A stretch of DNA of 64,000 bases from IMG/VR virus record IMGVR_UViG_3300008952_000003, positions 129,158-193,157 of that record; one strand, 5' to 3'. The position numbers were made by a program, and so were the translations under genes. Source of the stretch: a virus. The notes beneath the pieces were generated by a model, which did no database searches, was not told the origin of the DNA, and saw nothing but the letters and a program-made list of their open reading frames with translations. Shown one piece after another: positions 35,961-51,808 of the stretch (its first letter is position 1; each line of letters begins with the position of its first letter).

Positions 35961-36266
35961 ATGAGTCGCTTATCTTTTGAGCTTGGAGACATAGTGAGAT
36001 GGCGCCCCCTGTTTATGGTAGCCGGCAAGGCATTAGAAGAATTTTATGGCATGGTTATAAAGGACACAGAGACACTGCGCGGCGGTAAATATTCCTATGG
36101 ATCATCTGAATCTTCGACTGGCGATATAAATATGACCTATATAGAGCCGATGTCTGCTGTGACGGTCTTTTCGTTCAAGGATCAAAAAGTGGTAGTCTTA
36201 TACCAAAATCCAGATGACATCCCCTTGAGTATAGAGAAAGTTTGTTTTAATAATAAAAACTCTTGA
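35961..36266 (+). CDS. small SH3/KOW-like protein
   Basis: FELGDIVRW N-terminus. Confidence 0.55.
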   Translation: MSRLSFELGDIVRWRPLFMVAGKALEEFYGMVIKDTETLRGGKYSYGSSESSTGDINMTYIEPMSAVTVFSFKDQKVVVLYQNPDDIPLSIEKVCFNNKNS

Positions 36267-36291
36267 CAAACTGCCTTTATTGATATATAAT
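36263..36291 (+). promoter_or_regulatory. sigma70-type promoter
   Basis: TTGACA-17-TATAAT. Confidence 0.85.
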
Positions 36292-36883: not shown

Positions 36884-37081
36884 GTGACTTATAATACACT
36901 TGGCGAAGGCAATATGATATGGACAGTCATCTTTAAGACTCTCTGTGAGAAACCAGATAGTTGTGTGACTCTCGGGCCACCGTCAAGAACGAGATGCTGG
37001 AACCTTGCAAACCAAAAATATAACAAATTGATCGCAATCATACCAGGAAATCACGAAGTTTATATTAAAAATAACTCTTGA
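36884..37081 (+). CDS. small hypothetical protein
   Basis: ORF in operon. Confidence 0.5.
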   Translation: MTYNTLGEGNMIWTVIFKTLCEKPDSCVTLGPPSRTRCWNLANQKYNKLIAIIPGNHEVYIKNNS

Positions 37082-37132
37082 CATACTCTTGACAATTTAA
37101 CACTAGACAAAATCAGAAATAGCGTGTATAAT
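37076..37132 (+). promoter_or_regulatory. 57-bp early promoter module, copy 1
   Basis: TCTTGACA-TAC-TCTTGACA..TAGACA-17-TATAAT; drives tRNA. Confidence 0.85.
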
Positions 37133-37145
37133 GTATATACATAAT

Positions 37146-37221
37146 ACGCTAGTAGCTCAGGGGTGAGAGCAGTCGTCTTATATGCGATTGGTCGGTGGTT
37201 CAAATCCACCCTAGCGTACCA
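37146..37221 (+). tRNA. tRNA-Ile, anticodon UAU
   Basis: ACGCTAG/CTAGCGT acceptor, GCTC/GAGC D arm, loop CT-TAT-AT, GGTGG-TTCAAAT-CCACC T arm, A73, CCA; 76 nt. Confidence 0.93.
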
Positions 37222-37248
37222 TTTAACCCACAACCATAAAGGTAAATC

Positions 37249-37503
37249 ATGATTAAAACTTGTAAACACTGTGAAATAGAATTCAATGTCAACTCGCGCC
37301 AAAAGCGCCTCGTCGGAGGATACATTAATGAGTGTCCAGATTGCGTCGAGGAGCGAGGTGGTGATAACTCGGAGCCCAAACACTTCGGAGTGACCGGTTC
37401 ACTCGGTGACGATGTTTCGGTAGTTCGCTTTGATAGTCAAAAGAAGCGAGATCAATTCCAGAAAGAGTATGGAGAAATTAAAACCCTCAAAGACTTTTTC
37501 TAG
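37249..37503 (+). CDS. small Zn-ribbon protein
   Basis: CKHC...ECPDC. Confidence 0.7.
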   Translation: MIKTCKHCEIEFNVNSRQKRLVGGYINECPDCVEERGGDNSEPKHFGVTGSLGDDVSVVRFDSQKKRDQFQKEYGEIKTLKDFF

Positions 37504-37560
37504 TCTTGACATTCTCTTGACAATTTAACCATTGACTTAACCTTGAAAATCATGTATAAT
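37504..37560 (+). promoter_or_regulatory. 57-bp early promoter module, copy 2
   Basis: TCTTGACATTCTCTTGACAA..TTGACT-17-TATAAT. Confidence 0.9.
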
Positions 37561-37586
37561 TATTAGAAATCACACAGGAGCCTAAA

Positions 37587-38729
37587 GTGCTAAAATCAAA
37601 CCTATCTGTAGTACCCTCCGTCATCCCACCACTTCCACAGCAGTCCGCTATCCAGTGGGATACTTATCTTAAATCGTGCCCCACCCGACCAGCTCGGTGT
37701 CCGGTACGCGAACACGCCGGGATCAATGGCGGTATCGCAAAAGAATATTTAATAGATATTCACTTAATCGTAAAAGACCCTTACTATCAAAATCGCCTTC
37801 TCGGTGCCCTTGCGAACAAGATTAGTGAGTTAGCTAACCAACTCCACACTTGTCCAGAAGGGCTGAAAGTTGGTATCTGTGTGGCTCTTGGGCCCAACGG
37901 CGACCTTCTATTACGTTGGGGTAACCACCGACTTCGCGCAACTAAGCAAAACAATGGAAATAACTTAGCTATCCCTAACATGCCCGTAGGAAAAATCTGG
38001 GCTTCAATTTATGACTTTCCAACGTCACAGGTTCGCAAGTGGCAAGCTGTAGAAAATAACATACACGATGTCTCTAGTCCTGCTACAAAAGACGATAATG
38101 TACTTTCTTTGAAGGAAATGGTTGCCGCTGGCGAATTGGATACTTCTGCTTCCAAGTTTGTCGATTGCGACGACGAAGAAAAGGATAAGCGTTTAAAGAA
38201 GATTATTAAAGAAACGATGCCAAGTTGGTCGACCAAAATTAAACGTTTGATTAAGGAGTTTCGTCGCCAAAATACCAATGTTTATCGAGTGGAATCGTAT
38301 ACAGCCCGCGAAATGAAAACTTACTTTAAGAAAAACTGTCCACTTCACGGAGAACTTGATTTTAGCTCCTATTCGGAGAGTAATAAGAATATTATTAAGT
38401 CCACATTGCCAGATGGTTCAGTTCGTTCGAGCAAGATTGTATTTACTCATGCTGCCAGCGCAGACCTTGGCGGCGCAATCTTTCAAACTGCCATGCAAAA
38501 CAAATTTGTTGACGTAGACTGCGACGAAGTTGTCTTAGTAAGTTGTCATAGCGGCAAGGCTGAAGCTGGTTTGAACTCGACTCGAAAGGACCGAGAAACA
38601 TTAGTCCGAACTTGGAATTCGGCACTACCAGGCGGTTCTCATACAAGGTTGATTGATAGGATCTTCGTACTTCCGCAGACAACAGCGGAAAAGAAAGGTT
38701 CTAAGTTTATTTCTAAGAAGCCTCTATAG
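37587..38729 (+). CDS. ParB-like N-terminal domain protein (paralog of 16809-17936)
   Basis: WGNHRLRA, EN...SPATK shared with paralog. Confidence 0.6.
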   Translation: MLKSNLSVVPSVIPPLPQQSAIQWDTYLKSCPTRPARCPVREHAGINGGIAKEYLIDIHLIVKDPYYQNRLLGALANKISELANQLHTCPEGLKVGICVALGPNGDLLLRWGNHRLRATKQNNGNNLAIPNMPVGKIWASIYDFPTSQVRKWQAVENNIHDVSSPATKDDNVLSLKEMVAAGELDTSASKFVDCDDEEKDKRLKKIIKETMPSWSTKIKRLIKEFRRQNTNVYRVESYTAREMKTYFKKNCPLHGELDFSSYSESNKNIIKSTLPDGSVRSSKIVFTHAASADLGGAIFQTAMQNKFVDVDCDEVVLVSCHSGKAEAGLNSTRKDRETLVRTWNSALPGGSHTRLIDRIFVLPQTTAEKKGSKFISKKPL

Positions 38730-38780
38730 ACTACACTAGTACCAAGGGGCTGACTCCCCCTAACACCTTTCCATAAGGAC

Positions 38781-38837
38781 TCTTGACATTCTCTTGACAA
38801 TTTAACCATTGACTTTAACTTAAATAACGTGTATAAT
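38781..38837 (+). promoter_or_regulatory. 57-bp early promoter module, copy 3
   Basis: TCTTGACATTCTCTTGACAA..TTGACT-17-TATAAT. Confidence 0.9.
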
Positions 38838-38861
38838 GTATGTATAAATAGGGAGAGAGGC

Positions 38862-38886
38862 GCGGGTTCAAATCCTGTCACGACCA
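38862..38886 (+). pseudogene. tRNA 3'-half remnant
   Basis: GCGGG-TTCAAAT-CCTGT T arm then CACGACCA; no 5' half. Confidence 0.5.
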
Positions 38887-38965
38887 AGGGACCAGTTGTG
38901 AAGTGTTGCTAGGTGGCACGCTCGCCCTATTTATATCACCAATCAATTCAAACCAGGAGCCCAAA

Positions 38966-39130
38966 ATGCTGAACGACCCATCACTTCAAGACCTCATTCA
39001 AGAAACCATCGAAGAATATTATAAAGAAGAATATAATTACGGTTTAGATTATGACGAAATGCCAGAAGATTTAGAGGGCGAATGCCCCGAGTGGATTAAG
39101 GAACAACTTGATGACGACATCCCATTTTAA
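38966..39130 (+). CDS. small acidic hypothetical protein
   Basis: SD AGGAG before ATG 38966. Confidence 0.55.
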   Translation: MLNDPSLQDLIQETIEEYYKEEYNYGLDYDEMPEDLEGECPEWIKEQLDDDIPF

Positions 39131-39356
39131 ACAAGGAACACAAACAACACTGAAGCCCAATAAAGGGGCATCACAGCGGACCCGAAATCGTATTCGCGAA
39201 AAGGGTCCGTCTTTTATTGTCGAGCTTGAGGCGACAATGTTAACCAACACAGCCTCTTCAATTGATGGGAAAATTTGTGTTTGCTTTCGACAAATCGATG
39301 GTGATTGGTCGGGTTGGCTCCCCGTCGACGAGATTCACGCAATAACTTCACTATGA
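39108..39356 (+). CDS. small hypothetical protein
   Basis: overlapping operon ORF. Confidence 0.6.
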   Translation: MMTTSHFKQGTQTTLKPNKGASQRTRNRIREKGPSFIVELEATMLTNTASSIDGKICVCFRQIDGDWSGWLPVDEIHAITSL

Positions 39357-39367
39357 GAGAGAGCAGC

Positions 39368-39592
39368 ATGAAAAGACAATACTTCGAGCCAGGGCAAATT
39401 GTTCAGCTAGACCGCCCAGAATTGGGCGAGCGCGATACGTGGAGATTTATTGTTCTATCTTCGGGTCACAGTCGGTCGCGTCCACCTGGCCGATATTCTC
39501 TTTATTGCATTCGCGCCCCATCTTATCGTAAAGCAGACCTCAATACCATTCAGTATGTATCTGGTTGCAGCCTGCGAATAACGGAGGACTAA
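39368..39592 (+). CDS. small SH3/KOW-like array protein
   Basis: YFEPGQIVQL. Confidence 0.6.
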   Translation: MKRQYFEPGQIVQLDRPELGERDTWRFIVLSSGHSRSRPPGRYSLYCIRAPSYRKADLNTIQYVSGCSLRITED

Positions 39593-39595
39593 TAA

Positions 39596-39817
39596 GTGAA
39601 GTTTAAATCATCAGATTTTAGCAAGGGTCAATTTTATAAGTTGAAGACCCAATCCTTTATTATCTTGGATAAGGAATCAATAAGTGGGTGGTTCGACCGC
39701 ATCTCTGTGTACTTTGTCACGTGCAGAAACAAGCAGTTAAGAGGAAAGAAAAAAGAATTTACCAGTGGTGGTTTTGAAATTTACTTAAACAAGCTTTGCT
39801 CCAGCGAACATAAATAA
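39596..39817 (+). CDS. small SH3/KOW-like array protein
   Basis: DFSKGQFYKL. Confidence 0.55.
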   Translation: MKFKSSDFSKGQFYKLKTQSFIILDKESISGWFDRISVYFVTCRNKQLRGKKKEFTSGGFEIYLNKLCSSEHK

Positions 39818-40042
39818 AATGACCGAGGAGGTTACATAACTTGAAAGCGTAGCCCGTTGCTATATAGGGCTACCTCTTGATTCTAAGGGTTGGCGACAGC
39901 GCTGCTTCAGGCGCGGCGCATTATGAGCCTTCTATCTCCATTATCAAGGGGGCGCGCGCGAAGCGTCAACAAACAATTTATGTAGATAGGAAGCCGGATA
40001 TCCGAGCAAAACGGCATCGACCTCCTCGGTCATTTTATTTAT
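39810..40042. ncRNA. putative structured ncRNA closed by a 23-bp perfect inverted repeat
   Basis: 39810-39832 is the exact reverse complement of 40020-40042; nested stems inside; no ORF. Confidence 0.6.
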
Positions 40043-40047
40043 AATTC

Positions 40048-40104
40048 TCTTGACATTCTCTTGACAATTTAGTTCTTTACTTTCTCTCTAAAAGCGCGTA
40101 TAAT
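40048..40104 (+). promoter_or_regulatory. 57-bp early promoter module, copy 4
   Basis: TCTTGACATTCTCTTGACAA..TTTACT-17-TATAAT. Confidence 0.9.
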
Positions 40105-40130
40105 GTAAGTATACAAAAGAGAGTTGTGCC

Positions 40131-40379
40131 ATGCTAGACATCAATAACTTAAAGTCAGGGCAAATGGTGAGATACTCCTCAAAGATCTTTGATTCTGAGA
40201 AATCGGTAGAGTCTTTGTGGATATTGCTAGAGGAAGAACTCGGAGCCCATCCGCTGGGCCGCGCGTTCAAACTGTATCAAATATATGATAGTCAAAACTA
40301 TGTCGACCCCCAGTACATAACAGTTACTTACATTTTTAACTCACTCAACGCTAAAGATTTCACGCTGGAGGTGCCATGA
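40131..40379 (+). CDS. small SH3/KOW-like array protein (tandem paralog A)
   Basis: LKSGQMVRYS...VESLWILL. Confidence 0.65.
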   Translation: MLDINNLKSGQMVRYSSKIFDSEKSVESLWILLEEELGAHPLGRAFKLYQIYDSQNYVDPQYITVTYIFNSLNAKDFTLEVP

Positions 40380-40636
40380 TAGATATCAATAGCTTAAAGT
40401 CAGGGCAAATGTTAAGATATTCCGTAAAATTGTATGCATCGCAGGAACACGTTGAATCTTTGTGGATATTGCTGGGGGAAAGTAAAGCGCATGCGTTCTG
40501 CCGCCCCGGAGAAAGATTGTTCAAAATGTATCAAATATATGATAGCCACAATGACCTTTTCATCTTGCGTAATCGACCAACCGATTACATTTTTAACTCA
40601 AGTACCATTAAGAATTTTGTATTGGAGCCGGCATGA
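40376..40636 (+). CDS. small SH3/KOW-like array protein (tandem paralog B)
   Basis: LKSGQMLRYS...VESLWILL; clearly similar to 40131. Confidence 0.65.
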   Translation: MIDINSLKSGQMLRYSVKLYASQEHVESLWILLGESKAHAFCRPGERLFKMYQIYDSHNDLFILRNRPTDYIFNSSTIKNFVLEPA

Positions 40637-40845
40637 AAGATGAGCTTAAAGCAGGACAATTAAGAACTGTTCCACGTGGTGGGCTTGAGGGCGCAGTGGT
40701 TATTCTTTTGGATATACAGGAACACGCAAGAGTGTTGACCCCCAAGAATCAGATTTGGAACTCGATTATCGTCTTTTCACCCAGTCCATACTGGGAGCCT
40801 GGCGAGAAAATAGGTCTTCGTGGCATAGATTTGATGAACTGGTGA
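40633..40845 (+). CDS. small SH3/KOW-like array protein
   Basis: ELKAGQLRT. Confidence 0.55.
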   Translation: MKDELKAGQLRTVPRGGLEGAVVILLDIQEHARVLTPKNQIWNSIIVFSPSPYWEPGEKIGLRGIDLMNW

Positions 40846-40848
40846 GTT

Positions 40849-41082
40849 ATGGATTTCGAACCCGGCCAAGTCCTGAATCTATATAGTGGCTACGAGCAGA
40901 GCGCTGAAGAGGAGCTATTGTCATCCAGTATAATCGTGGAAGTTCGAGAGCACTCCCTGCTTCTGTTTAAATTTTATACTAGATTTCCAGACCCAACAGA
41001 GGGCGCCCTCGTACTTCAAGCTAAAGAATATATAGAAGAAGAGTGGGATAATAAATATTTCTATTGGAGAATAGAAAGTTAA
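40849..41082 (+). CDS. small SH3/KOW-like array protein
   Basis: DFEPGQVLNL. Confidence 0.55.
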   Translation: MDFEPGQVLNLYSGYEQSAEEELLSSSIIVEVREHSLLLFKFYTRFPDPTEGALVLQAKEYIEEEWDNKYFYWRIES

Positions 41083-41086
41083 TTCT

Positions 41087-41143
41087 TCTTGACATTCTCT
41101 TGACAATTTAGTTCTTTACTTTCTCTTCGAAAGCGTGTATAAT
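41087..41143 (+). promoter_or_regulatory. 57-bp early promoter module, copy 5
   Basis: TCTTGACATTCTCTTGACAA..TTTACT-17-TATAAT. Confidence 0.9.
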
Positions 41144-41168
41144 GTATATATAGAATGGAGTTTACCCT

Positions 41169-41771
41169 ATGTCAGAACAAGCCAAAAGACTAGATGCCTT
41201 CCTGAACAACAACAGTATTTCTGCCTCTGAACGCTCTTTTGGGGCCTCCCTAAAAAAGAGTGTTACAAACTACGGAAAGATGACAGAGCGCCAGTGGAGT
41301 GCTTTTCAGCGCATGGAGGCGCGCCATAGCCCCGAAGTCAAGGCCGCTCGAAAACAATGGGAGCAAGACTGGACCGAGGAGAAGGCCAAGAATCTCCGAA
41401 CCGCCGCCGAATACTATCTATGTAATCCTCCATACTTCGGAGAGGCAGCCCGAACAATTATCGCAGACCCCACCTACATTCCAAGTCAAAAATTGTATCA
41501 TAAGATGGTAGAGAATAAGTATGTTCAGAAGGTTTTAACGACACTCGCCACAGAGCCGCTCTATCCAGTTGGCAGTCTTGTCCAGGTCAGAAAGACCGCC
41601 AGAGAATATGCGTACAAGCTCCGCGACCGCCAGGCGCTAGTTGTAATGAATGACGGCGTAGTCAAGTCAGCCGCCAAGGGCGCCCGAACTTACACAATTC
41701 TTCCATTCGGAGAATCAGGCACCATCACCATCGAAGAACGCTGGCTCAAGAGAGCCCCGAGGGCTAAATGA
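41169..41771 (+). CDS. hypothetical early protein with C-terminal SH3-like segment
   Basis: YPVGSLVQVRK near C-terminus. Confidence 0.7.
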   Translation: MSEQAKRLDAFLNNNSISASERSFGASLKKSVTNYGKMTERQWSAFQRMEARHSPEVKAARKQWEQDWTEEKAKNLRTAAEYYLCNPPYFGEAARTIIADPTYIPSQKLYHKMVENKYVQKVLTTLATEPLYPVGSLVQVRKTAREYAYKLRDRQALVVMNDGVVKSAAKGARTYTILPFGESGTITIEERWLKRAPRAK

Positions 41772-42025
41772 GCACCCATCTATCCCCGAATCCGGGAGAT
41801 ATCCTTGAGGAGAACTGCCCCAGAAGTGATTTCAGGGCAAGATATATTGTTTTATCTATTATCCAAGATAAGCATGCCCCTACTCATGGAAATTCTTACA
41901 AGTTGTACACCTTGTTTGTCGAGTCTCCGTGCCCATCGGATAGGGATTTGCAGGGTACAATCGACACCGTATACAATCTGGAAATAAACAACACCGACCA
42001 CGACGAATGGCGTATCATCTCTTGA
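41768..42025 (+). CDS. small SH3/KOW-like array protein
   Basis: PNPGDILEE...RYIVL. Confidence 0.55.
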   Translation: MSTHLSPNPGDILEENCPRSDFRARYIVLSIIQDKHAPTHGNSYKLYTLFVESPCPSDRDLQGTIDTVYNLEINNTDHDEWRIIS

Positions 42026-42076
42026 CATTCTCTTGACAACTTTTCTCTTTACTTTCTCTTGAAAAGCGTGTATAAT
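42020..42076 (+). promoter_or_regulatory. 57-bp early promoter module, copy 6
   Basis: TCTTGACATTCTCTTGACAA..TTTACT-17-TATAAT. Confidence 0.9.
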
Positions 42077-42124
42077 GTATATGTAAGTTAGAGATTCGCC
42101 TACAAACTTTTTGGAGCTATCACA

Positions 42125-42919
42125 ATGGCATACACAAGAAACTACAAAAGAACCGTCCGATGCTCATACTGCGGAGATTCCGGTCACAACCGCTCATCAT
42201 GCTCAAACCTGAAAGAGCATATTGAAAAACTACGCGCCGAACACGGCGACGAGCATTATACCGTTCGAGTCCATGACCGCAAGAAAGCAAAACGGAAGGC
42301 CAGCGGAAAGAGTCGCAAGTGTTCATACTGCGACGAAGGCGGCCACAACCGCGCAACCTGTTCGCACTTGAAAGAGCACATGGCTGAAACCAGAGCTAAA
42401 AACTCTGAATTCAGGAAGGCTGTTTATAGGCACCTGTGCCGCCTGGGAATAGGCGTTGGGGCCATAGTTTCGAGCGACACCCACCAGAATCGTATCGATC
42501 CAGACAACTTTGAGAGTGCGCGCTACCGAGTTCCGCAGATTGTAACAGATATAAATTGGCTCGGAATCAACGTATGGAACCGCGAAGTTTGGTATTTTGA
42601 CAGTTCCTCCTCGGGCCACACTGGCGACCGCCCAGCACCTCTTTTCGTCGTTCCTATGGGGAACCTCGGCGCCTACAACTGGAAGAATGTAATGGGCTAC
42701 CCGTTCGATGAGGAGCTTTTAAAGCTGTTTTTGAACGAGCGTCTTTTGGGAGAGCTAAAGGACGGCTCTCACTGGCGTGCTAATGAGAAGGAAAACCACT
42801 TCTTAACTATTGAATCACCCGTTCCGCCCACTGCCCCACCTAAAGGCTGGTTTAGTTCCAAGGACAAGAAAATTAAAGAGATTTACAAGCGCCGAAAGAG
42901 TTGGCAAGGGGCTTTATAA
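42125..42919 (+). CDS. protein with two CCHC zinc knuckles
   Basis: CSYCGDSGHNRSSC and CSYCDEGGHNRATC (CX2CX4HX4C). Confidence 0.85.
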   Translation: MAYTRNYKRTVRCSYCGDSGHNRSSCSNLKEHIEKLRAEHGDEHYTVRVHDRKKAKRKASGKSRKCSYCDEGGHNRATCSHLKEHMAETRAKNSEFRKAVYRHLCRLGIGVGAIVSSDTHQNRIDPDNFESARYRVPQIVTDINWLGINVWNREVWYFDSSSSGHTGDRPAPLFVVPMGNLGAYNWKNVMGYPFDEELLKLFLNERLLGELKDGSHWRANEKENHFLTIESPVPPTAPPKGWFSSKDKKIKEIYKRRKSWQGAL

Positions 42920-42925
42920 GCCCTT
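42906..42925 (+). terminator. hairpin, possible terminator
   Basis: AAGGGGCT-TTATA-AGCCCTT at the ORF end. Confidence 0.45.
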
Positions 42926-42931
42926 TATCAC

Positions 42932-42988
42932 TCTTGACATTCTCTTTACAATTAAAGTATTGATTTATGTTCTAAAAGCGTGTATAAT
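42932..42988 (+). promoter_or_regulatory. 57-bp early promoter module, copy 7
   Basis: TCTTGACATTCTCTTTACAA..TTGATT-17-TATAAT. Confidence 0.85.
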
Positions 42989-43033
42989 GTATATATAAGT
43001 TAGAGAAACAACACAACAACCTGGAGACTTAAT

Positions 43034-44188
43034 ATGTCTATTGCTATCACATTCGCAAACCTCAATTCCATGATTCCAACACTCCTTTCGGGAGACGAAA
43101 AAGACCTTTATTCAGTTCTTATTCGCGGCCGCCACGGCATCGGGAAATCATGGGTTGCTTATCAAACTGCTGCCGGCCTCACTTGGGACGCCTCGGAAAA
43201 CAAGACGCGTCCGCTAAGAGGGAGCGAAAAAGCCCTCCCAGTGGTTGAGATTCGCGCCTCCCAAATGACCGAGGGCGACCTTCTCGGCCTCCCTTCTCCT
43301 CATGAAGTCGACATTAACGGAGAAAAAGCAGCTTCGTTGCGTCCTTTCGCGTGGCTTGTTAAAGCCTGTACCGAGCCCGTTGTCCTTTTCCTTGATGAAG
43401 TTGACCGAGCCACAACGGAGGTTCGCCAGGGCTTCTTTCAGCTTGGTGATAGTCGTCAAATTAACGGCTGGAAACTTCATCCTGGCACTGTTGTTTTTGG
43501 CGCGGTAAATGGAGGAGTTCATGCTGCACAATATCAGGTAGCTGATATGGACCCCGCAGAGCTTGACCGCTGGGTTACGTTTGACGTCGAGCCATCTATC
43601 GAAGATTGGCTCGCTTGGGGCAAATCCGAAGTTCATTCTATTATCTGGGATTTTGTCAATCAAAACCATGATCATCTTGAGCACAAGGGGGAATTCGAGC
43701 CGGGCACCGTGTACCCTTCGCGCCGCTCGTGGCATCGCTTGAGCAATACTCTTGCAAAAGTTGATATGCTCGACGAAGAGAGTCCAAATCTGGGGCTGCT
43801 ATTCAATCTCTCTCATGGGTTCGTCGGCTTTGAGGCCGCCGTAGCCCTCCGTGATTTTGTTGAGAATTACGAGCGCCAAGTCACTGTTGAGGACATCTTG
43901 GTCCATGGCAGAATAGATAAAACCAAGGACTTCGGACTTGTCGACCACGTGGCCCTCATCGAAAAGATTGACGCAAGTGGGGTTTTCGCCGCAGCAATTG
44001 AGAATTCGAAAATGATCAACTTGGTCGATTACTTCGATGCACTCCCAGCAGAGGCCCGCATGAAACTGTTTACAACCCTGACCGCAGCTAACAGCCAGGT
44101 ATCCGCCGAGAATGGAGCGAACTTCCACCGCGAACTGGCCAAGCAAGGCAAAGTGGAAGCATTTATCAAGCTTCTTGGTGGAAAATAA
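43034..44188 (+). CDS. MoxR-like AAA+ ATPase
   Basis: Walker A GRHGIGKS, Walker B LFLDEVDR, GAVN, DPAELDRW, SRRSW. Confidence 0.88.
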   Translation: MSIAITFANLNSMIPTLLSGDEKDLYSVLIRGRHGIGKSWVAYQTAAGLTWDASENKTRPLRGSEKALPVVEIRASQMTEGDLLGLPSPHEVDINGEKAASLRPFAWLVKACTEPVVLFLDEVDRATTEVRQGFFQLGDSRQINGWKLHPGTVVFGAVNGGVHAAQYQVADMDPAELDRWVTFDVEPSIEDWLAWGKSEVHSIIWDFVNQNHDHLEHKGEFEPGTVYPSRRSWHRLSNTLAKVDMLDEESPNLGLLFNLSHGFVGFEAAVALRDFVENYERQVTVEDILVHGRIDKTKDFGLVDHVALIEKIDASGVFAAAIENSKMINLVDYFDALPAEARMKLFTTLTAANSQVSAENGANFHRELAKQGKVEAFIKLLGGK

Positions 44189-44211
44189 GAGAGTGTGATA
44201 GCAAAGGTTGC

Positions 44212-44250
44212 AGCGCTGGCGTCGGTTGGTTGTTATCCGACGCTAGCGCT
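44212..44250 (+). terminator. 14-bp hairpin, probable terminator
   Basis: AGCGCTGGCGTCGG / CCGACGCTAGCGCT followed by a pyrimidine tract. Confidence 0.65.
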
Positions 44251-44257
44251 CCCTTTC

Positions 44258-44314
44258 TCTTGACATTCTCTTGACAATTTAATCCTTTACTTTTGCGCTA
44301 AAAGCGTGTATAAT
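44258..44314 (+). promoter_or_regulatory. 57-bp early promoter module, copy 8
   Basis: TCTTGACATTCTCTTGACAA..TTTACT-17-TATAAT; leader to ATG identical to copy 5. Confidence 0.9.
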
Positions 44315-44339
44315 GTATATATAGAATGGAGTTTACCCT

Positions 44340-45674
44340 ATGACACCGACACCCTTTAATCTTGACGAACATATTGTTGGCCTTCTCCGAGACGAGCCCT
44401 TCTTCGCCGCCCTCTCGCGCCGCATGGAAAAGGTGGCATCGAGGTCAGTTCCTACGGCTGGAGTAGCTTTTAATGAGGAGCGCGCCCGGTTTGAGCTATA
44501 CTATAATCCCGAATTCATGGCAGACATGCTCTCGCAAGATAAGAAATATGTTAAGGGCATTCTTTTACACGAGTTCTATCATATCATGCTTTTACACGTA
44601 ACTTCTCGCATGCCCGAAGGCAAGATGACGAGAAAGTGGAATATCGCTACTGACCTCGCCATTAACAGCGAGCTATCTGTGTTTGCGGCTAACAGCGAAA
44701 CTCCAACTGGGTACGCCGTTGAAAGCTCGCTCTTGCCGCTCGATAAAGCGCTAATTCCCACTGTTGGGCCATTTTCCGAACTGAAGCCACATCTTTCGGC
44801 TGAAGAGTATATGGTTTTATTACCAGAATCCCCAGAGCAAGATAATAATCCAGCCGACGGCCCCGGCGAGCCCGGTGACGATTCTGACTCCGATGGTCCC
44901 GGCAACCCAAGCGACGGCGATGGTGGTTCGTCACCAAGCGACCAGGAAGGCGACGAACAAGGAGGAGAGGGAAGTGGAGACGGCAACGGCTTCGATGATC
45001 ATTCTGATTGGGGTTCTTCCGATGGTTCCGACGAGAATCGAAAAATAGCCGAAGAGAGACTAAAAGAAGCCATCAAGGAGGCATATGTCGAGGCCCAGTC
45101 TCGCGGTTTTGGTTCGGTTTCTGCTAGCATGAGGCGCACAATTAAGGATGTTATAACTCCCAAGGTAAACTGGCGCTCAATCCTGCGCTCTTTCGTCAAG
45201 GCTTCGCAGAGAGCAGATAGAACCTCAACTATCAAGCGCCTGAATCGCCGATACGCTTACATTCATCCAGGCCGCAAGGCAAAGCGTCAAGCTAAAATCG
45301 CGGTTTCAATTGACCAATCTGGCAGTGTTTCCGATGGCATGCTCGTTGCATTTTATGCAGAGCTTGAAAAGCTGGCAACCATCGCTGATTTTACGATTGT
45401 CCCCTTTGATACCGAGGTTGCAGAAGAGCACATCCATGTTTGGAAGAAGGGCGCCCGCCACGAAAAGACTCGCTATAAGCATGGTGGAACCTGCTTCAAC
45501 GCTCCAACCAGGTGGGTCAACGAGAATAACTTTGATGGTCACATTGTCCTGACTGATATGGAGGCTCCAAAGCCCATTCCTAGCAAGTGTCAGCGTATGT
45601 GGATGACAACCAAGGCGCATGCAGAACGCCCTTACTTCCAGACCAATGAGCGAGTGATAGCAATCAATGACTGA
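44340..45674 (+). CDS. DUF2201-like metallopeptidase plus vWA-like domain protein
   Basis: LLHEFYH, NIATDLAIN, acidic G/D/S linker, SIDQSGS MIDAS, GGTCF, LTD. Confidence 0.85.
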   Translation: MTPTPFNLDEHIVGLLRDEPFFAALSRRMEKVASRSVPTAGVAFNEERARFELYYNPEFMADMLSQDKKYVKGILLHEFYHIMLLHVTSRMPEGKMTRKWNIATDLAINSELSVFAANSETPTGYAVESSLLPLDKALIPTVGPFSELKPHLSAEEYMVLLPESPEQDNNPADGPGEPGDDSDSDGPGNPSDGDGGSSPSDQEGDEQGGEGSGDGNGFDDHSDWGSSDGSDENRKIAEERLKEAIKEAYVEAQSRGFGSVSASMRRTIKDVITPKVNWRSILRSFVKASQRADRTSTIKRLNRRYAYIHPGRKAKRQAKIAVSIDQSGSVSDGMLVAFYAELEKLATIADFTIVPFDTEVAEEHIHVWKKGARHEKTRYKHGGTCFNAPTRWVNENNFDGHIVLTDMEAPKPIPSKCQRMWMTTKAHAERPYFQTNERVIAIND

Positions 45675-45903
45675 TAGATACCTTAAAATCAGCAATATCG
45701 AATCTTTAAAAGCTGGAGATATTCTCTGTCTTCCTATGAAGGGAGAGCTAGGTGAGTGGTCGAGGCTTGTTGTATACGAGGTTACGAAAAGGTTGTTGAA
45801 AACTTATGTATTGCTTGACCAAGCTGGTGGCTGGGCTCCAGGAGATATGTATAGTTTCCAGTTAATTGGCTTCGACCCTGCGAATTGGAGGCTACTAGCA
45901 TGA
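45667..45903 (+). CDS. small SH3/KOW-like array protein
   Basis: SLKAGDILCL. Confidence 0.55.
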   Translation: MTDRYLKISNIESLKAGDILCLPMKGELGEWSRLVVYEVTKRLLKTYVLLDQAGGWAPGDMYSFQLIGFDPANWRLLA

Positions 45904-46127
45904 TTCTTGAGTCTGGAACTATAATCGAGGAAATCTCGGATGGTCAAGTCGATATCCGGTGCCTGGTGTTGGAGTACGAAAAACATCCAACGGTTCGAGA
46001 CTTGGGAACGTATGTTTTATATGTGATATATTCAGGCAATACATACGCGCTCCCCGGCGAGACGATGGTGGTCAGGAGTACCCTTGTTGAATCTACGCAT
46101 GCAAATTATCACTGGAGGATAATCTAA
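45900..46127 (+). CDS. small SH3/KOW-like array protein
   Basis: ILESGTIIEE. Confidence 0.55.
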   Translation: MILESGTIIEEISDGQVDIRCLVLEYEKHPTVRDLGTYVLYVIYSGNTYALPGETMVVRSTLVESTHANYHWRII

Positions 46128-46378
46128 TGAAGTTTAAACCTGGAAATTTATTGAAGCACGAGAGGTCTTCCGGGCTCTGGATTGTCGTTGAGGCGCTCCC
46201 AATAAATAAGAAGGGCTCGCCTCACCGCCCGACCGTCTTTAGGCTCCAGATGACTGCCACTTGTGTCCAGCCCGGTACTTCAAACCTCCACTATCCTGGG
46301 AGCAGCGATACCTGGCTTTTCAAGGAGAAAGATGGAAGCGACCATAACGATATGTGGAAGGTGATAAATGAAATTTAA
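46127..46378 (+). CDS. small SH3/KOW-like array protein
   Basis: MKFKPGNLLKH. Confidence 0.6.
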   Translation: MKFKPGNLLKHERSSGLWIVVEALPINKKGSPHRPTVFRLQMTATCVQPGTSNLHYPGSSDTWLFKEKDGSDHNDMWKVINEI

Positions 46379-46613
46379 AGTCGGAGATTTAATAACTCAC
46401 AAGCCTTTGGGTGGTAATACCGCCGTTGATGCGATTATCTTGAAGCACTGGCAAACTGAAACACCAGGAATGGGCGCCCAACAAAAGACGCAGCGCGTTG
46501 ATAACGTGCATTTATTCATAACTTTCGACGAGGCTGACCCGACTGCAGTTGGCGATATTGACGTGATGTGCGGTTTCCGAGAGCAGCATTGGAGCTTAAA
46601 AAATGGAGTTTAA
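46368..46613 (+). CDS. small SH3/KOW-like array protein
   Basis: MKFKVGDLITH; similar to 46603 (KHW, DNV.LF.T.D). Confidence 0.6.
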   Translation: MKFKVGDLITHKPLGGNTAVDAIILKHWQTETPGMGAQQKTQRVDNVHLFITFDEADPTAVGDIDVMCGFREQHWSLKNGV

Positions 46614-46824
46614 AGCTGGAGATATTGTAGTTTATAAACAGGACGGCAAATCGTCAATTGAGGGCATTGTCGTCAAGCACTGGAAAGGGCCAAACCCGTG
46701 GGTAGCGGGAACCATTGATAATGTAGATTTATTCGTAACTTTGGATACGACCTGGCCTTCTAAGCTTCATAAAATTGAGACGTTTAGAAATTTTAGTACC
46801 CAGATTTGGGAGGTGAAAACATGA
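46603..46824 (+). CDS. small SH3/KOW-like array protein
   Basis: MEFKAGDIVVY. Confidence 0.6.
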   Translation: MEFKAGDIVVYKQDGKSSIEGIVVKHWKGPNPWVAGTIDNVDLFVTLDTTWPSKLHKIETFRNFSTQIWEVKT

Positions 46825-47048
46825 AAAAGGGCGACCTAATTCAGCTTCGAACCTCGGTTGCCGCGCGCCGCTGCAGGGGGATTGTATTGGAAGACGCCCC
46901 AAAAGATGCCAATTTTAGAACGAGAATCGCGGTGTATATGTTTTACGTTCCATCCTGGAACAACCTTAAATCAGGGGAAATTTGGGACATCCCCCTGAAC
47001 AAGCTAGGCAAGCAATATGAGATTTTGGGTAAAATCGAAACTATCTAA
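46821..47048 (+). CDS. small SH3/KOW-like array protein
   Basis: MKKGDLIQL. Confidence 0.6.
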   Translation: MKKGDLIQLRTSVAARRCRGIVLEDAPKDANFRTRIAVYMFYVPSWNNLKSGEIWDIPLNKLGKQYEILGKIETI

Positions 47049-47051
47049 GGT

Positions 47052-47321
47052 GTGAAAAAGAGATATCTCCCAGGTCAAATAGTGAGTTTTATGAGGACTG
47101 GGGCTATATATTTGTTAATTGAGGAAGTGGAGATATCAATGCTTTCACCTCATTTTTTTAAAGGAACTGGTCAGGGGTTTAGAGCTAGAATTCTCTATAC
47201 AGGAAGAACCTGGTCGAAACCAGGCGAAGAAAGGGAGATATTCATCCTGCACGCATCATCTTATTACGAGATTTTATCGGACGTCGCCCCAGCCGCGCCC
47301 GCCCAGATAGTTGGTGATTAG
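47052..47321 (+). CDS. small SH3/KOW-like array protein
   Basis: YLPGQIVSF. Confidence 0.6.
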   Translation: MKKRYLPGQIVSFMRTGAIYLLIEEVEISMLSPHFFKGTGQGFRARILYTGRTWSKPGEEREIFILHASSYYEILSDVAPAAPAQIVGD

Positions 47322-47359
47322 CGCGTTTCGCGCGATTTTTTTCCGCTAAATTTTTTTTT
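47321..47359 (-). repeat. A-tract/CGCG intergenic motif, copy 1 (inverted relative to 56436)
   Basis: minus strand reads A9-TTTAGCGG-A7-TCGCGCGAAACGCGC. Confidence 0.55.
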
Positions 47360-47374
47360 CAACAGGATCACATT

Positions 47375-47632
47375 GTGAAGTTTAAACCAGGAAATATCAT
47401 CGAACATTGCCCCACCAAAACAAGATGGATTGTGCTCTCTGCAGAGAATGTCGAGAAAAGAACAGGAATAAACAGCGCTTATAAGCTAGAAGTCGAAGCT
47501 TATTGCGTCTATTTGGGAAAACACAAGAGGGCAATTAAATATTGGGAAGTTAATCAGCGTGATACCTTTGTTTTGACACAGCAAGATTTAAATCCGAGTG
47601 ACTTTGTATGGGAGGTTAGGAATGAAGTTTAA
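47375..47632 (+). CDS. small SH3/KOW-like array protein
   Basis: MKFKPGNIIEH; similar to 46127. Confidence 0.6.
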   Translation: MKFKPGNIIEHCPTKTRWIVLSAENVEKRTGINSAYKLEVEAYCVYLGKHKRAIKYWEVNQRDTFVLTQQDLNPSDFVWEVRNEV

Positions 47633-47813
47633 ACCAGGACAATTGGTGAGAAAGAAAGCGAGAAAAGGAGATCCAGACGCAATCTATTATGTATTGGACA
47701 CGAACTATCCTAAAATGCTGATTCATTGTGTTGAATCACTCTTTGATTTTATACAGGGGGAAGCCTATGAAGTCTGTGTTGGTGAGTGTGAATTGTTGAT
47801 GGATTACCGATGA
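47622..47813 (+). CDS. small SH3/KOW-like array protein
   Basis: MKFKPGQLVRK. Confidence 0.6.
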   Translation: MKFKPGQLVRKKARKGDPDAIYYVLDTNYPKMLIHCVESLFDFIQGEAYEVCVGECELLMDYR

Positions 47814-48055
47814 CCTCGAAACCCGCGAAGATTAGGCTTGAAGCGGGGGATATCGTAACTCTCGATTATGCCCGCGACAAGCCAAAGGGAGACGCGCCAT
47901 TATTCATAACGCTAGATGATCCGCCCTCGGTACACTATTCGGTGAATGTTTACTGCTTTTATAGCCCAGATCCAGGGTATGGGTACACGAATGCTGCTTG
48001 GCTTCATACAATTTTTGACATTTCCCAGAGCAGGTTAATAAAAGTTAATTATTGA
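47810..48055 (+). CDS. small SH3/KOW-like array protein
   Basis: RLEAGDIVTL. Confidence 0.55.
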   Translation: MTSKPAKIRLEAGDIVTLDYARDKPKGDAPLFITLDDPPSVHYSVNVYCFYSPDPGYGYTNAAWLHTIFDISQSRLIKVNY

Positions 48056-48076
48056 AAAAGTTTTTCTATTTACAAT

Positions 48077-48343
48077 GTGAGCGACTTCTTTCCAGGTGAT
48101 TTCATAGAGGAAACCATCGATAATAGAATAGTTGGCTATTATATAGTATTAACCAGGCATTATTTAAACGGTTGCAAAGAGGATGGCATGATTTTGGGAT
48201 ATTACACTTTAATAGTATATAGTACAGGACACGCATTGCCAACTCATTCTCCAGGATCAAACTGGTTTATCAAGCACTCTGATTTACAAAAATCCGATTT
48301 CAGAGTGGTATCCAGTGGCAAATTGTTGTGTCAAAGTCAATAA
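48077..48343 (+). CDS. small SH3/KOW-like array protein
   Basis: FFPGDFIEE...YYIVL. Confidence 0.55.
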   Translation: MSDFFPGDFIEETIDNRIVGYYIVLTRHYLNGCKEDGMILGYYTLIVYSTGHALPTHSPGSNWFIKHSDLQKSDFRVVSSGKLLCQSQ

Positions 48344-48642
48344 TAGAAATCAATCCGGGTGACATTGTGGCGGAGATACTTGGCGGAGAAGAGACGGGCC
48401 GATATATTGTCACGAGCAGAAGATTCGTGCGAGACCACACATTAAGAGAATATGTCATGTATGAGGCGATTATTATATATATAACTGATGAATGGACAGA
48501 CTTTCATAAGCCGGGTGATAAGTGGTCATTCGAATTGTATTCAGACGGGCACAGTATACAGGACGTTAGTTTCGGATCTTACACCTACAAAGTCCTGTTT
48601 AGAAGCTCGTTAACGTGGAAAGACATAGAAGTCATGGAATAA
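48328..48642 (+). CDS. small SH3/KOW-like array protein
   Basis: INPGDIVAE...RYIV...LTWKD. Confidence 0.6.
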   Translation: MSKSIIEINPGDIVAEILGGEETGRYIVTSRRFVRDHTLREYVMYEAIIIYITDEWTDFHKPGDKWSFELYSDGHSIQDVSFGSYTYKVLFRSSLTWKDIEVME

Positions 48643-48650
48643 ACACGCTA

Positions 48651-48989
48651 ATGACATTTGACGCAAAAACATTTAAAAAGAGCATCAGAAGGGGTGATAT
48701 CCTCGTTGAAAAGTACAAACTAACAAAGCACGGACATCGAGAAGTGGTTAGCATATATCTAGTATTAAACAGGCATATGGAGAGTGAACCCATGGTCGAT
48801 GGATACGAGAGAACACTTTTTTATAAAACCTATTTAATGTACGTTAATACTCGACAATGGTCATCAGGAGAGAAAAATCTGGTTGGAACGATATACTATT
48901 TATCAGAGCATGAAATCAGTGACCATCACAATTGGGAAAAACTGTTTGAATCTGGTTTATCATGGAATGATTCTTATCCGAGGACATAA
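48651..48989 (+). CDS. small SH3/KOW-like array protein
   Basis: IRRGDILVEK...ESGLSWND. Confidence 0.6.
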   Translation: MTFDAKTFKKSIRRGDILVEKYKLTKHGHREVVSIYLVLNRHMESEPMVDGYERTLFYKTYLMYVNTRQWSSGEKNLVGTIYYLSEHEISDHHNWEKLFESGLSWNDSYPRT

Positions 48990-48997
48990 AAAAGAAA

Positions 48998-49276
48998 ATG
49001 AAAATTGATGAGTTATCTCCAGGGGATATAGTAAGAGAGAAGGACGGCGATGAAGAAATAGCTCGTTATATAGTAATAAACAGGCATATCCAGCACCCAG
49101 GCGCACAATATTATTATGTCGAATATGATTGTATAATATTGTACTATAATGGTAAGTTATACCAGAGACCTGAAAAGGTAGGAACATGGTGGATAATTGA
49201 TTCAATCAATCTTAATAGTCCCAGAGAGAACTGGGAAATTGTGGTAGAAAGTGGGTTATCGTGGGATGATGATTAA
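48998..49276 (+). CDS. small SH3/KOW-like array protein
   Basis: LSPGDIVRE...RYIV...ESGLSWDD. Confidence 0.6.
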   Translation: MKIDELSPGDIVREKDGDEEIARYIVINRHIQHPGAQYYYVEYDCIILYYNGKLYQRPEKVGTWWIIDSINLNSPRENWEIVVESGLSWDDD

Positions 49277-49522
49277 TATCACAAAACGTAGATTAAAATA
49301 AGGGAATAATAGAATCACAATAGGCATGGAAGAAATAGGGGAATCACGGTGAGGATCTAGTACGTTGTAACTAGAATGTCAAGCGCCATTATTGTGAAGA
49401 TTCTGTCAATTCTTCATATATTTACTTGACAAATGTAAACACGCTTATATACCCCCTTATCGCAATCACAGTACTCATATCGAGTGATTAATCATATGCC
49501 ACCATCAAACACACTAATCGCG

Positions 49523-49556
49523 TGTCAAGTATTTAATTGTCAAAAGAATGTCAAGT
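49523..49556 (-). promoter_or_regulatory. minus-strand copy of the three-box module without a recognisable -10
   Basis: TGTCAA at 49523, 49538, 49549 (15 and 11 bp spacing). Confidence 0.7.
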
Positions 49557-49576
49557 GAAGATAAACAAGATTCCCC

Positions 49577-49606
49577 TTGACATTTCCCCCAATATCATGG
49601 TATACT
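49577..49606 (+). promoter_or_regulatory. sigma70-type promoter
   Basis: TTGACA-18-TATACT with TGn. Confidence 0.65.
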
Positions 49607-49622
49607 AGTATTATAGGAGAGA

Positions 49623-49763
49623 ATGATGGAAGCACTATTACGCAATATACTCCTGCTTTTTGGAGTGTTGTTCATAATTGACTTTGTAACTGAATATCCA
49701 AAGACATTCGATAATGTCGATGAAACCGTTGAAAACATTAAAGCCAAATTTGGCAGTAAATAA
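49623..49763 (+). CDS. small membrane protein (46 aa)
   Basis: SD AGGAG; one TM helix. Confidence 0.6.
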   Translation: MMEALLRNILLLFGVLFIIDFVTEYPKTFDNVDETVENIKAKFGSK

Positions 49764-49773
49764 GGAGATTATC

Positions 49774-49860
49774 ATGCCATCACGATTTACCGACATTGTA
49801 ATAGTGATATCACTCGCGTATCTTGTGGGTTTTGCATTGTATGCTTACATACTAGCTTAA
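49774..49860 (+). CDS. membrane micro-peptide (28 aa)
   Basis: SD AAGGAG; hydrophobic. Confidence 0.55.
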   Translation: MPSRFTDIVIVISLAYLVGFALYAYILA

Positions 49861-49966
49861 TCACAAAACACGTCAAACGCACAAATCTGACAGAAAATTC
49901 GGAGAGCCTATAAGAATATAAATATTATGTCCTCGGTCATATAGAGGGTTATAACACGAATATCAC

Positions 49967-50023
49967 TCTTGACATTCTCTTTACAATTAAGTGATAGACT
50001 TCAAACGCTATCGGGTGTATAAT
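49967..50023 (+). promoter_or_regulatory. 57-bp early promoter module, copy 9
   Basis: TCTTGACATTCTCTTTACAA..TAGACT-17-TATAAT. Confidence 0.85.
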
Positions 50024-50051: not shown

Positions 50052-50243
50052 ATGAATAAAAAACGCCGTTCATATCGTCCACGCAAGCCGGCCCGCACGC
50101 CTTGGATTGTCTGTTGGACTCACAACACAACAGGATTCGCAGACGCGTCGACTGTGTACGCGAAAGACGAGGAACAAGCTAAGCTTTTGGCGTCTAACGG
50201 TTACACCTCGAACATCACAATTACCAGCGTTTATCGCGCTTAA
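50052..50243 (+). CDS. small hypothetical early protein
   Basis: SD GAGGAG. Confidence 0.65.
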   Translation: MNKKRRSYRPRKPARTPWIVCWTHNTTGFADASTVYAKDEEQAKLLASNGYTSNITITSVYRA

Positions 50244-50266
50244 TCACCCCAGTATAGGATAATAAT

Positions 50267-50662
50267 ATGAAAGATATCAGATTAATGATTGCAGAAAAAA
50301 TGGACGATATGCTTGACGAGCTTTTGTCAGACCTCGCGTACGACTTAGACCTGGATGATGCCGATTTGGATTACGACGTTAAACAGGATGTAAGTGATGA
50401 ATGGGGCACCATGGTCGATAAAATCACTGAAGCTGTTGAGAATCACGTTCAGGCAGTTGTCGAGGTTAAAACAGAGCAATTGCTTGAAGAGTGGAAAGGG
50501 TGGTCATTGCCTATTATCAAGAAAGAATGCGAACAAGATGGCGTCATGGACGGGCCAGCGCGCCGAGAGGATTGGTGCAATTTCGTCGACGCAAAGCAGA
50601 AAAACGGTGAAATCTCCGATTTTGTCGCTGAACTCGTGGATGCTGACGTTGAGAGTGTATAA
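50267..50662 (+). CDS. acidic hypothetical protein
   Basis: D/E-rich; REDWCNFVDA C-terminal motif. Confidence 0.65.
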   Translation: MKDIRLMIAEKMDDMLDELLSDLAYDLDLDDADLDYDVKQDVSDEWGTMVDKITEAVENHVQAVVEVKTEQLLEEWKGWSLPIIKKECEQDGVMDGPARREDWCNFVDAKQKNGEISDFVAELVDADVESV

Positions 50663-50754
50663 TGAATGACTCAATATTGGACTTTCTTGGCCTATTATCA
50701 ATCTTCGCAACCTGTTATTTCCTGCTAATCGCATCACAACTCATCGGAGCATAA
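50662..50754 (+). CDS. membrane micro-peptide (30 aa)
   Basis: ATG overlaps upstream TAA; hydrophobic. Confidence 0.5.
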   Translation: MNDSILDFLGLLSIFATCYFLLIASQLIGA

Positions 50755-50756
50755 TT

Positions 50757-51026
50757 ATGTTTGACCCACACGCAATCGGACCTTTTGCAGAATCCCAAAC
50801 CAAGGCTTTAAGCTTCATTACGAGCCTTATCGTTAATACTGCAGTCACCGAGACTCTTAAAGTCATGGATGATATGCAGTTAGAAGGCAAACAATTGCTT
50901 AAAGAACTTCGAAGTTCCGAGGGCAATAAAAAAGAAGAAGTAAAAGCAGCTTTGAAACTGCACATTAAAGACTCTAAACTCTTGCTTGAAACCATTATGA
51001 TGAACCCAATCGAAAAGGATGCTTAA
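50757..51026 (+). CDS. small hypothetical protein
   Basis: operon ORF. Confidence 0.6.
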   Translation: MFDPHAIGPFAESQTKALSFITSLIVNTAVTETLKVMDDMQLEGKQLLKELRSSEGNKKEEVKAALKLHIKDSKLLLETIMMNPIEKDA

Positions 51027-51029
51027 ACC

Positions 51030-51299: not shown

Positions 51300-51310
51300 T
51301 GGAGGACACT

Positions 51311-51612: not shown

Positions 51613-51808
51613 TCAAGTATTATTATCAGGCTTTACATTCTCTTGACAATTAAATGCTTGACACTCTATAGAGCAGTAACAAACTTATATAATACGAATT
51701 GACACAATCTTTACATATGACATAGTAATAAAAGAGTTTACAAGTATTTGACATATCACAATAACAAAGGAACAAACTGATTTGTCACAGCAAGCAAACG
51801 ATTTGTCA
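51611..51808. repeat. AT-rich array of TTGACA/TTTACA/TGTCA boxes
   Basis: boxes at 51611, 51632, 51643, 51658, 51699, 51710, 51737, 51748, 51783, 51804; many 11 bp apart. Confidence 0.7.

Follow-up and report, generated by a model that had tools for sequence, protein, structure and literature searches.

Three-box promoter modules with tandem upstream TTGACA-type boxes in the early-type region of a marine phage genome

Early promoters decide the first minutes of a phage infection. The strong phage promoters known so far consist of a core promoter to which A/T-rich UP elements are added, and rrnB P1 likewise has a UP element upstream of a strong promoter. Phage-encoded proteins can also act at asymmetric or directly repeated sites, examples being the TTGC-N6-TTGC site of lambda CII and the "stoperators" of L5. 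For regulators of the PhoB type the placement rule is that the site replaces or abuts a poor -35 element, so that the regulator contacts sigma. The early promoters of T4 carry UP elements or phased A-tracts upstream (PMC2988021), and cassettes headed by a promoter-early stem-loop (PeSL) have been described in the T4-type phages RB49/phi1, T4/PST and KVP40/nt-1 (Arbiol et al. 2010, PMC2839356; Comeau et al. 2014, PMC4122927). The PHO box is defined by two 11-nt direct-repeat units, in which a conserved core is joined to a linker that varies more, and is bound head-to-tail (PMC4415409), and the C repressors of the P2 family use direct-repeat operators (PMC1904268). The present work concerns nine promoter modules with two TCTTGACA boxes upstream of the -35, located in the final 64 kb (hereafter the window, to which all coordinates refer) of a 193,157-bp IMG/VR virus genome rated as complete (IMGVR_UViG_3300008952_000003, positions 129,158–193,157). 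No description of this three-box promoter architecture was found in the published literature. What the locus adds to the described systems is the positional equivalence of boxes and A-tracts, the avoidance of a box-like -35, box arrays without a promoter and mapped breakpoints.

The genes of this phage lie nearly all on one strand, and it carries genes for a contractile-tail sheath and for a polymerase of the DnaE type; the phage looks like a virulent 193-kb marine myovirus. Nucleotide searches of GenBank phages with the box region returned no match, and protein searches there returned distant relatives only, without a cultured reference. All box copies of the genome are confined to one block of ~15 kb (window 37.0–51.7 kb), and most gene products of this early-type region have no Pfam match.

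Architecture of the modules

The nine modules are located within 13 kb on the plus strand at 37076, 37504, 38781, 40048, 41087, 42020, 42932, 44258 and 49967, exactly where a first-pass annotation of the window had placed them, and 9 of 9 have a length of exactly 57 bp. Each reads TCTTGACA-(T/A)(T/A)C-TCTT(G/T)ACAA, followed by 8 nt, a -35-like hexamer, 17 nt and TATAAT. The hexamers begin at module positions 3, 14 and 29; the offsets +2, +13 and +28 given in the annotation count the preceding C. The upstream element spans ~-63 to -42 and is composed of two 11-nt direct-repeat units, each formed by TCTTGACA and 3 nt, and the linker of 8–9 nt between box 2 and the -35 is A/T-rich. Allowing for two mismatches at most, the double box is matched at 12 places versus 0.14 expected, and 11 complete three-box units are present in the genome versus 0–1 in 20 shuffles. 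Pairs of TTGACA-like hexamers on the plus strand are found 14 times at the 11-bp period versus 0–5 times at other periods. Besides the nine modules there are three decayed copies, one at 49538 (minus strand) and two farther on, at 51630 and 51697.

The -35 hexamers of the nine modules are TAGACA, TTGACT (two modules), TTTACT (four), TTGATT and TAGACT. The claim that the boxes are better conserved than the actual -35 holds both in this genome and across its relatives. A -35 element of sigma70 stands 16–18 bp before its -10; at this distance past box 1 or box 2 there is no -10-like hexamer, despite the perfect hexamer match, and in one lineage of relatives the box reads GTGACA. The possibility that the boxes are the -35 elements of hidden promoters was rejected for this lack of a -10 at the proper distance.

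Each module lies in a short gap and is followed by a ribosome site with ATG or GTG 26–66 nt past TATAAT, the stretch of initial transcription downstream of TATAAT being conserved as well. The exception is module 1, where tRNA-Ile(UAU) starts 13 nt past TATAAT. The succession of the -35, 17 nt, TATAAT and either ribosome site with start codon or tRNA agrees with the earlier proposal that the modules are promoters which divide the region into cassettes, and marks them as sigma70-type promoters, each heading one cassette of the early-type region. A second class of promoters, without boxes, is represented by ~25 copies genome-wide. Their upstream DNA is rich in A and T, the -35 is a perfect (c)TTGACA(a), and the -10 is usually preceded by TGn; they stand mostly before replication-type genes. 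Since ~25 box-less sigma70 promoters coexist with the modules, the boxes are the mark of one promoter class and not of all host-type promoters.

Conservation of the boxes and shuffling of the cassettes

The exact box 20-mer occurs in 40 stretches on 32 IMG/VR contigs, 23 of which contain full modules. Five other complete genomes (167–205 kb) harbor 9–13 copies each, on one strand and within one block of 12–15 kb, and a promoter scan of the six genomes that was blind to the boxes finds boxes at ~55 of 66 early-region promoters. The identity between genomes is ~88% for the boxes versus 46–49% for the remainder of the module, and the -10 varies by lineage (TATAAT versus TATATT or GATAAT) with the boxes unchanged. 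The geometry is rigid: of 259 box pairs, 242 have the 11-bp spacing, and the -35 follows box 2 at a distance of 15 bp in 211 cases and of 14 bp in 28. As judged from the compared sequences, the boxes are under purifying selection at a fixed sequence and place, and in this respect they behave like a selected protein-binding site, as had been supposed.

For a sample of the clade independent of the boxes, relatives were collected by the AAA+ ATPase c3, which has its own module in every genome; 328 relatives were obtained and the best 80 loci were kept. The c3-upstream promoters of these 80 loci are of two kinds, with either double boxes or phased A-tracts. The A-tracts have a period of ~10 bp and centres near -61, -52 and -42 (12 c3 promoters of the box-less clade). 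On the tree of c3 all promoters without boxes fall into one clade of 25 (SH-aLRT 96) and the boxes are distributed over the other clades, so that a single change between the box and A-tract states suffices. Other promoters in the genomes of the A-tract clade are of the same A-tract type and have a perfect TTGACA as the -35. Because the A-tract centres coincide with the positions of the boxes and of the classical UP element, the boxes fill the slot of an upstream activating element. They share with UP elements the location (~-40 to -63, adjacent upstream of the -35) and the one-turn periodicity, and orthologous promoters of the sister clade carry A-tracts exactly at the box position. The boxes themselves span ~-63 to -44. 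In contrast to UP elements, they are not rich in A and T and each of their bases is conserved, which is unlike the minor-groove reading by the C-terminal domain of the alpha subunit.

The -35 itself differs between the two kinds of promoters. When only promoters with TTGAC at the -35 are compared, A occupies the sixth position in 15 of 149 promoters of the box type (10%) versus 57 of 73 of the A-tract type (78%), counts which are not independent, as module copies share ancestry and exchange sequence. The sixth-position A of the boxes themselves is essentially invariant. That the real -35 is kept unlike the box would be expected if a box-binding protein must not occupy the -35.

Two lineages deviate from both patterns. 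In one (G007: L097; L146–L149) four promoters have GTGACA-N4-GTGACA with a 10-bp period, 15 bp before the -35. The other (G008: L126; L153–L158) contains 8 exact GGACA-N5-TGTCC palindromes and 2 with one mismatch, all within 10 kb and ahead of early promoters. These were considered as an inverted-repeat variant of the operator, but several of them precede T-runs and are better taken for terminator hairpins of the PeSL type, so that the idea was dropped; this lineage has PeSL-like conserved stem-loops where others have boxes. Among the 328 marine contigs related by one early protein, the same promoter slot is filled by A-tracts, by two strictly spaced -35-like boxes or by the GTGACA variant. 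This amounts to a natural swap experiment, pointing to an unrecognised upstream reader in marine phage–host systems. The module promoters are also of interest as compact, portable promoter parts.

The order of the cassettes was mapped in eight genomes or fragments. A run of four cassettes (c1-c2-c3-c4), each with its own module, is conserved, and variable cassettes lie upstream of it. The 1277-bp cassette 37504–38780, formed by module 2 and a 380-aa gene, is missing in the closest relative (L027), and both ends of the alignment fall inside a module. Between modules, cassettes c58 and c42 occur in some genomes and are missing in others. A cassette of 174–186 aa stands between c2 and c3 in two genomes only, one of 118–121 aa is restricted to two other genomes, and c1 is translocated behind c4 in G005. 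Modules 5 and 8 had been described as identical through to the ATG. They are identical only over the terminal 42 nt, a run that starts at the spacer end and includes the ATG; over the whole length the identity is 77 of 86 positions. Module 5 bears the 3' part and the 5' untranslated region of module 8, and the ortholog of module 5 in L027 does not have them, which indicates a recent gene conversion. The identity of modules is 0.58 for paralogs within a genome versus 0.49 for orthologs between genomes. The suggestion that the modules serve as recombination points is thus supported by the relatives: indels, translocations and the conversion tract all break within modules, and the boundaries in cassette order and content coincide with modules (the 37504–38780 indel, c58/c42, the move of c1). 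A 233-nt element with 23-bp inverted ends (window 39810–40047), which has no Rfam match, precedes module 4. Being absent from this place in L027 and located ahead of the c2 module in L024 (86% identity), it moves with or next to the modules.

Hairpins directly upstream are found at modules 7 (-16.5 kcal/mol) and 8 (-27.7 kcal/mol) only, and the terminator scan detected no terminator directly ahead of any of the nine. The other modules adjoin or overlap the preceding open reading frame (ORF), and for this reason transcripts probably read through. The resemblance to the PeSLs is close. In both cases strong early promoters of the sigma70 type, nearly identical and each with a ribosome site and a start codon, are repeated before small ORFans of a hyperplastic block, and the repeats delimit the insertions, deletions and replacements seen among relatives. 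PeSLs are further characterised by mini-circles that arise when flanking elements recombine. The PeSL, however, includes a stem-loop terminator, whereas a clear hairpin stands before only 2 of the 9 modules, and it has an AT-rich tract upstream of the -35, where two TCTTGACA boxes are found here; the sister clade has the tract. The PeSL idea of repeated promoters as joints of cassette shuffling is hereby extended to a clade far from T4 and lacking the terminators.

Possible readers of the boxes

With moderate confidence (a probability of roughly 0.6) the modules are taken to be early promoters of the host RNA polymerase (sigma70-type) equipped with a dedicated tandem site for an activating protein upstream, and have a second role as homology patches. 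According to this explanation the host polymerase would read each core (TTGAC-t/c, 17 bp, TATAAT) and transcribe one short cassette of small genes or tRNA. The two-unit element upstream would be the site of a pair of proteins bound head-to-tail and would act as an activating element for RNA polymerase, in the role which the phased A-tracts have in the sister clade. The box binder may be a host factor, or a phage factor injected or made early. As near-identical direct repeats, mostly without terminators between them, the modules of 60–85 bp could double as homology patches, and recombination between them would delete, insert, move and convert cassettes, like the PeSLs of T4-type phages. The timing of transcription, the binding of a protein and the activation at the boxes are what we infer from the arrangement. 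Three-box units without a -10 fit with a protein site: in all 5 such units (two here and three in the relative G001) the third box is perfect, and by their sequence they look like pure binding arrays.

Several points weigh against this explanation. The label "early" is attached to these promoters by analogy. Trans_reg_C, Sigma70_r4 and AsiA have no match in the phage genome. The conserved early proteins c1–c4 are shared by the box and A-tract clades, and none of them is box-specific. The box is identical to the best -35 of the phage itself (cTTGACAa of the box-less class), which is odd for the site of an unrelated factor and keeps a reading intrinsic to RNA polymerase alive. The upstream site could equally well suit a repressor that blocks the contacts of the alpha subunit. 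Finally, the shared ancestry of the module copies bears on all counts such as that of the sixth base.

Candidates for the box reader encoded by the phage were looked for as well. Pfam detects no DNA-binding domain in 19 proteins of the early region. The c2 protein was rejected in this role, since its CCHC zinc knuckles more likely bind RNA or single-stranded DNA, and c1–c4 in general are excluded as box-specific readers by their presence in both clades.

Of the other explanations, the one that survives best, unlikely as it is, supposes that a host response regulator of the OmpR/PhoB type (for phosphate, for example) binds the two 11-nt units, so that a stress or nutrient signal of the host gates the early programme. 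The two direct repeats of 11 nt, with 7–8 conserved and 3–4 less conserved bases, match the definition of the PHO box and its head-to-tail mode of binding (PMC4415409). The opposite strand reads TGTCA-N6-TGTCA, the core of the E. coli CTGTCAT, and two units with core and linker would suit a head-to-tail pair. Promoter-proximal OmpR sites are located at about -63 to -42, as the boxes are. The regulator would have to be a host protein, because no OmpR-type domain (Trans_reg_C) is recognised in the six-frame translation of the phage genome. The placement of the boxes does not agree with this explanation: they end 9 nt before an intact -35 which stands 17 bp from TATAAT, and so they lie upstream of a good -35 and not in its place. 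The E. coli pho box, moreover, has the opposite orientation relative to transcription. The 20-mer has 5 matches in 185,579 prokaryote genomes, which is the chance level, and the only true modules among them belong to phage DNA in a metagenome-assembled genome (MAG) designated "WOR-3". It would also be risky for a lytic phage to subject every early promoter to a conditionally active regulator, and the cores look strong on their own. A broader form of the same thought, somewhat less probable, is that this marine clade swapped an A-tract booster for a tandem site of a signal-responsive host regulator (of the OmpR/PhoB type or similar), the state of the cell setting the strength of the early programme; the promoter-less arrays before the sigma gene of the phage would then relay the signal to the next stage.

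Equally improbable is the proposal that the boxes are additional -35 elements read by region 4 of sigma70, that is, docking sites of the polymerase or decoys. The decoy variant was put forward in the first-pass annotation, and it is disfavoured here. It is true that the box, (TC)TTGACA(A/T), coincides with the best -35 among the box-less promoters, that three boxes on the same strand look like a -35 region duplicated in tandem and that the three-box units lacking a -10 might do nothing but trap polymerase. But with no -10 at the right distance, a polymerase held at the boxes would overlap and block the real promoter. An array read by sigma would predict the opposite of what is seen at the real -35, which is unlike the box and avoids the sixth-position A. 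Conservation peaks on GACA and its flanks and tolerates an initial TTT or GTG, as in the GTGACA lineage, whereas region 4 of sigma relies mostly on TTG. At the box position the sister phages have A-tracts and not copies of the -35.

More doubtful still is the role of operators for a repressor made by the phage, which would shut off the early class after its products have built up, as in phage P2. Repressors acting on two direct repeats do exist in phages (P2 family, PMC1904268), and the boxes resemble such operators in that sites of an asymmetric or direct-repeat kind recur at many promoters within a genome. Their restriction to one promoter class in one block is consistent with such a role, as are the promoter-less arrays adjoining a sigma-like gene that probably drives the next stage, and the lineage variants (GTGACA, A-tracts) suit a phage protein that co-evolves with its site. 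The known examples, however, come from temperate phages, where the sites overlap the core promoter or lie in transcripts, whereas here they are upstream and the phage looks virulent. A site upstream of the core promoter is in the typical position of an activator, and this position matches that of the activating A-tracts of the sister phages; also, no candidate for a DNA-binding protein specific to the box-bearing genomes was found.

Finally, it is hardly conceivable that the boxes have no DNA-binding role and are kept as recombination homology or for the stop codons they supply, a TGA in each of two frames: the breakpoints do fall within modules and in ~26 of 64 modules from six genomes the upstream ORF ends at a TGA in box 1 or box 2 (by heuristic ORF calls), but homology or stops require neither eight specific bases, nor the exact 11/15-bp geometry, nor conservation while the rest is less than 50% identical, and cassettes of this kind are also shuffled in the sister phages, where the promoters carry A-tracts.

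Cassettes, the adjoining control stretch and further observations

All nine modules head cassettes on the plus strand. Module 1 (37076..37132), with TAGACA as the -35 and TATAAT, precedes tRNA-Ile(UAU) at 37146–37221 and an 84-aa ORF, and module 2 (37504..37560) precedes the 380-aa ORF at 37587–38729. Module 3 (38781..38837) is followed by a leader of 66 nt and then by small ORFs at 38903–39817. At the start of its transcript (38859–38886) this leader contains a stretch resembling the T-arm of a tRNA, with a GGTTCAAATCC core and ending in ...ACCA. The stretch is kept after the orthologous module in L024, L027 and G001, and the leader gives no tRNA call by ARAGORN and no Rfam match. Module 4 (40048..40104) heads small paralogous ORFs at 40131–41082.

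The conserved run begins with module 5 (41087..41143), which heads c1 (200 aa, 41169–41771) and an 85-aa ORF. The ORF ahead of module 6 (42020..42076) terminates at a TGA within box 1 of that module, and the product of the following c2 (264 aa, 42125–42919) has two zinc knuckles of the retrovirus type (CCHC, C-X2-C-X4-H-X4-C), which suggest binding of RNA or single-stranded DNA. Module 7 (42932..42988), with the hairpin 42906–42926 ahead of it, precedes the AAA+ ATPase c3 (43034–44188). Module 8 (44258..44314) is preceded by the more stable of the two hairpins (44212–44250, 14-bp stem) and followed by c4, a metallopeptidase/VWA protein (44340–45674), and then by small ORFs up to 49276. Module 9 (49967..50023) heads the ORFs at 50052–51457.

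Two three-box units of this genome have no properly placed -10. The first is inverted (49500..49556, minus strand), has a perfect third box and no usable -10, and is situated in a non-coding stretch of 340 bp together with an extra degenerate box pair near 49409, also on the minus strand. In the second (51630..51760, plus strand) TATAAT stands 24 nt and not 17 nt past the -35, and box pairs with the 11-bp period follow at 51699 and 51737; this unit is located between the terminator 51584–51604 and the sigma-like gene. As for the box-less class, an example on the plus strand is found at 36263..36291 (A/T-rich upstream DNA and a perfect TTGACA-17-TATAAT), and further promoters of this class in the window are at 49577, 51942 and 52948.

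The early block is separated from the sigma-like gene by a 340-nt non-coding stretch (51600–51940). It contains a terminator hairpin, several sets of TTGACA boxes, a direct repeat of GATTTGTCA (two copies at a distance of 21 bp) and a G6-TA-C7 palindrome with a C-rich run behind it. G001 (L061) shares this arrangement and a large part of the sequence, and has three three-box units without a -10 at the same place. The stretch may act as an origin or a control region, or may encode a non-coding RNA. The adjacent gene (51961–52683) encodes a protein of 240 aa. Its N-terminal part matches T4 gp55 weakly (profile E = 0.096), the top matches in a fold search are nearly all sigma factors, and a helix-turn-helix is conserved at the C-terminus. 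The protein is a two-domain sigma-like factor of the gp55 kind, with an end resembling region 4. More than 900 homologs of ~230 aa are present in marine metagenomes, and the same genome encodes a paralog (P0136), the homolog cluster of which is ~34% identical to the 240-aa protein. No promoter logic linking this sigma-like protein to the boxes was found.

The "WOR-3" MAG mentioned above (L057, CP070664.1, chromosome of 2.8 Mb) contains two true modules and more box pairs, as well as phage genes scattered at distant coordinates, including a sheath protein with 51% identity. The interpretation of these modules as a host regulon was rejected and they are read as phage DNA of this clade that came into the MAG by binning or scaffolding, at best a weak clue to the host. 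In a Kiritimatiellia MAG (L059, ~7270–7330) double boxes are arranged in an inverted/palindromic manner, with extra copies of TTGACA and without promoter context; this may be due to chance or represent a cellular operator. An unrelated-looking contig of 187 kb (L041, IMGVR_UViG_3300030099_006944) has at ~5500–5800 a double box followed by an array of AAAAACTTTACATAACT repeats which looks like iterons. Downstream of the box region, the window also harbors a one-piece transfer-messenger RNA gene (59099–59441, Rfam 119 bits) with the tag peptide ANNNNHFQAVALAA.

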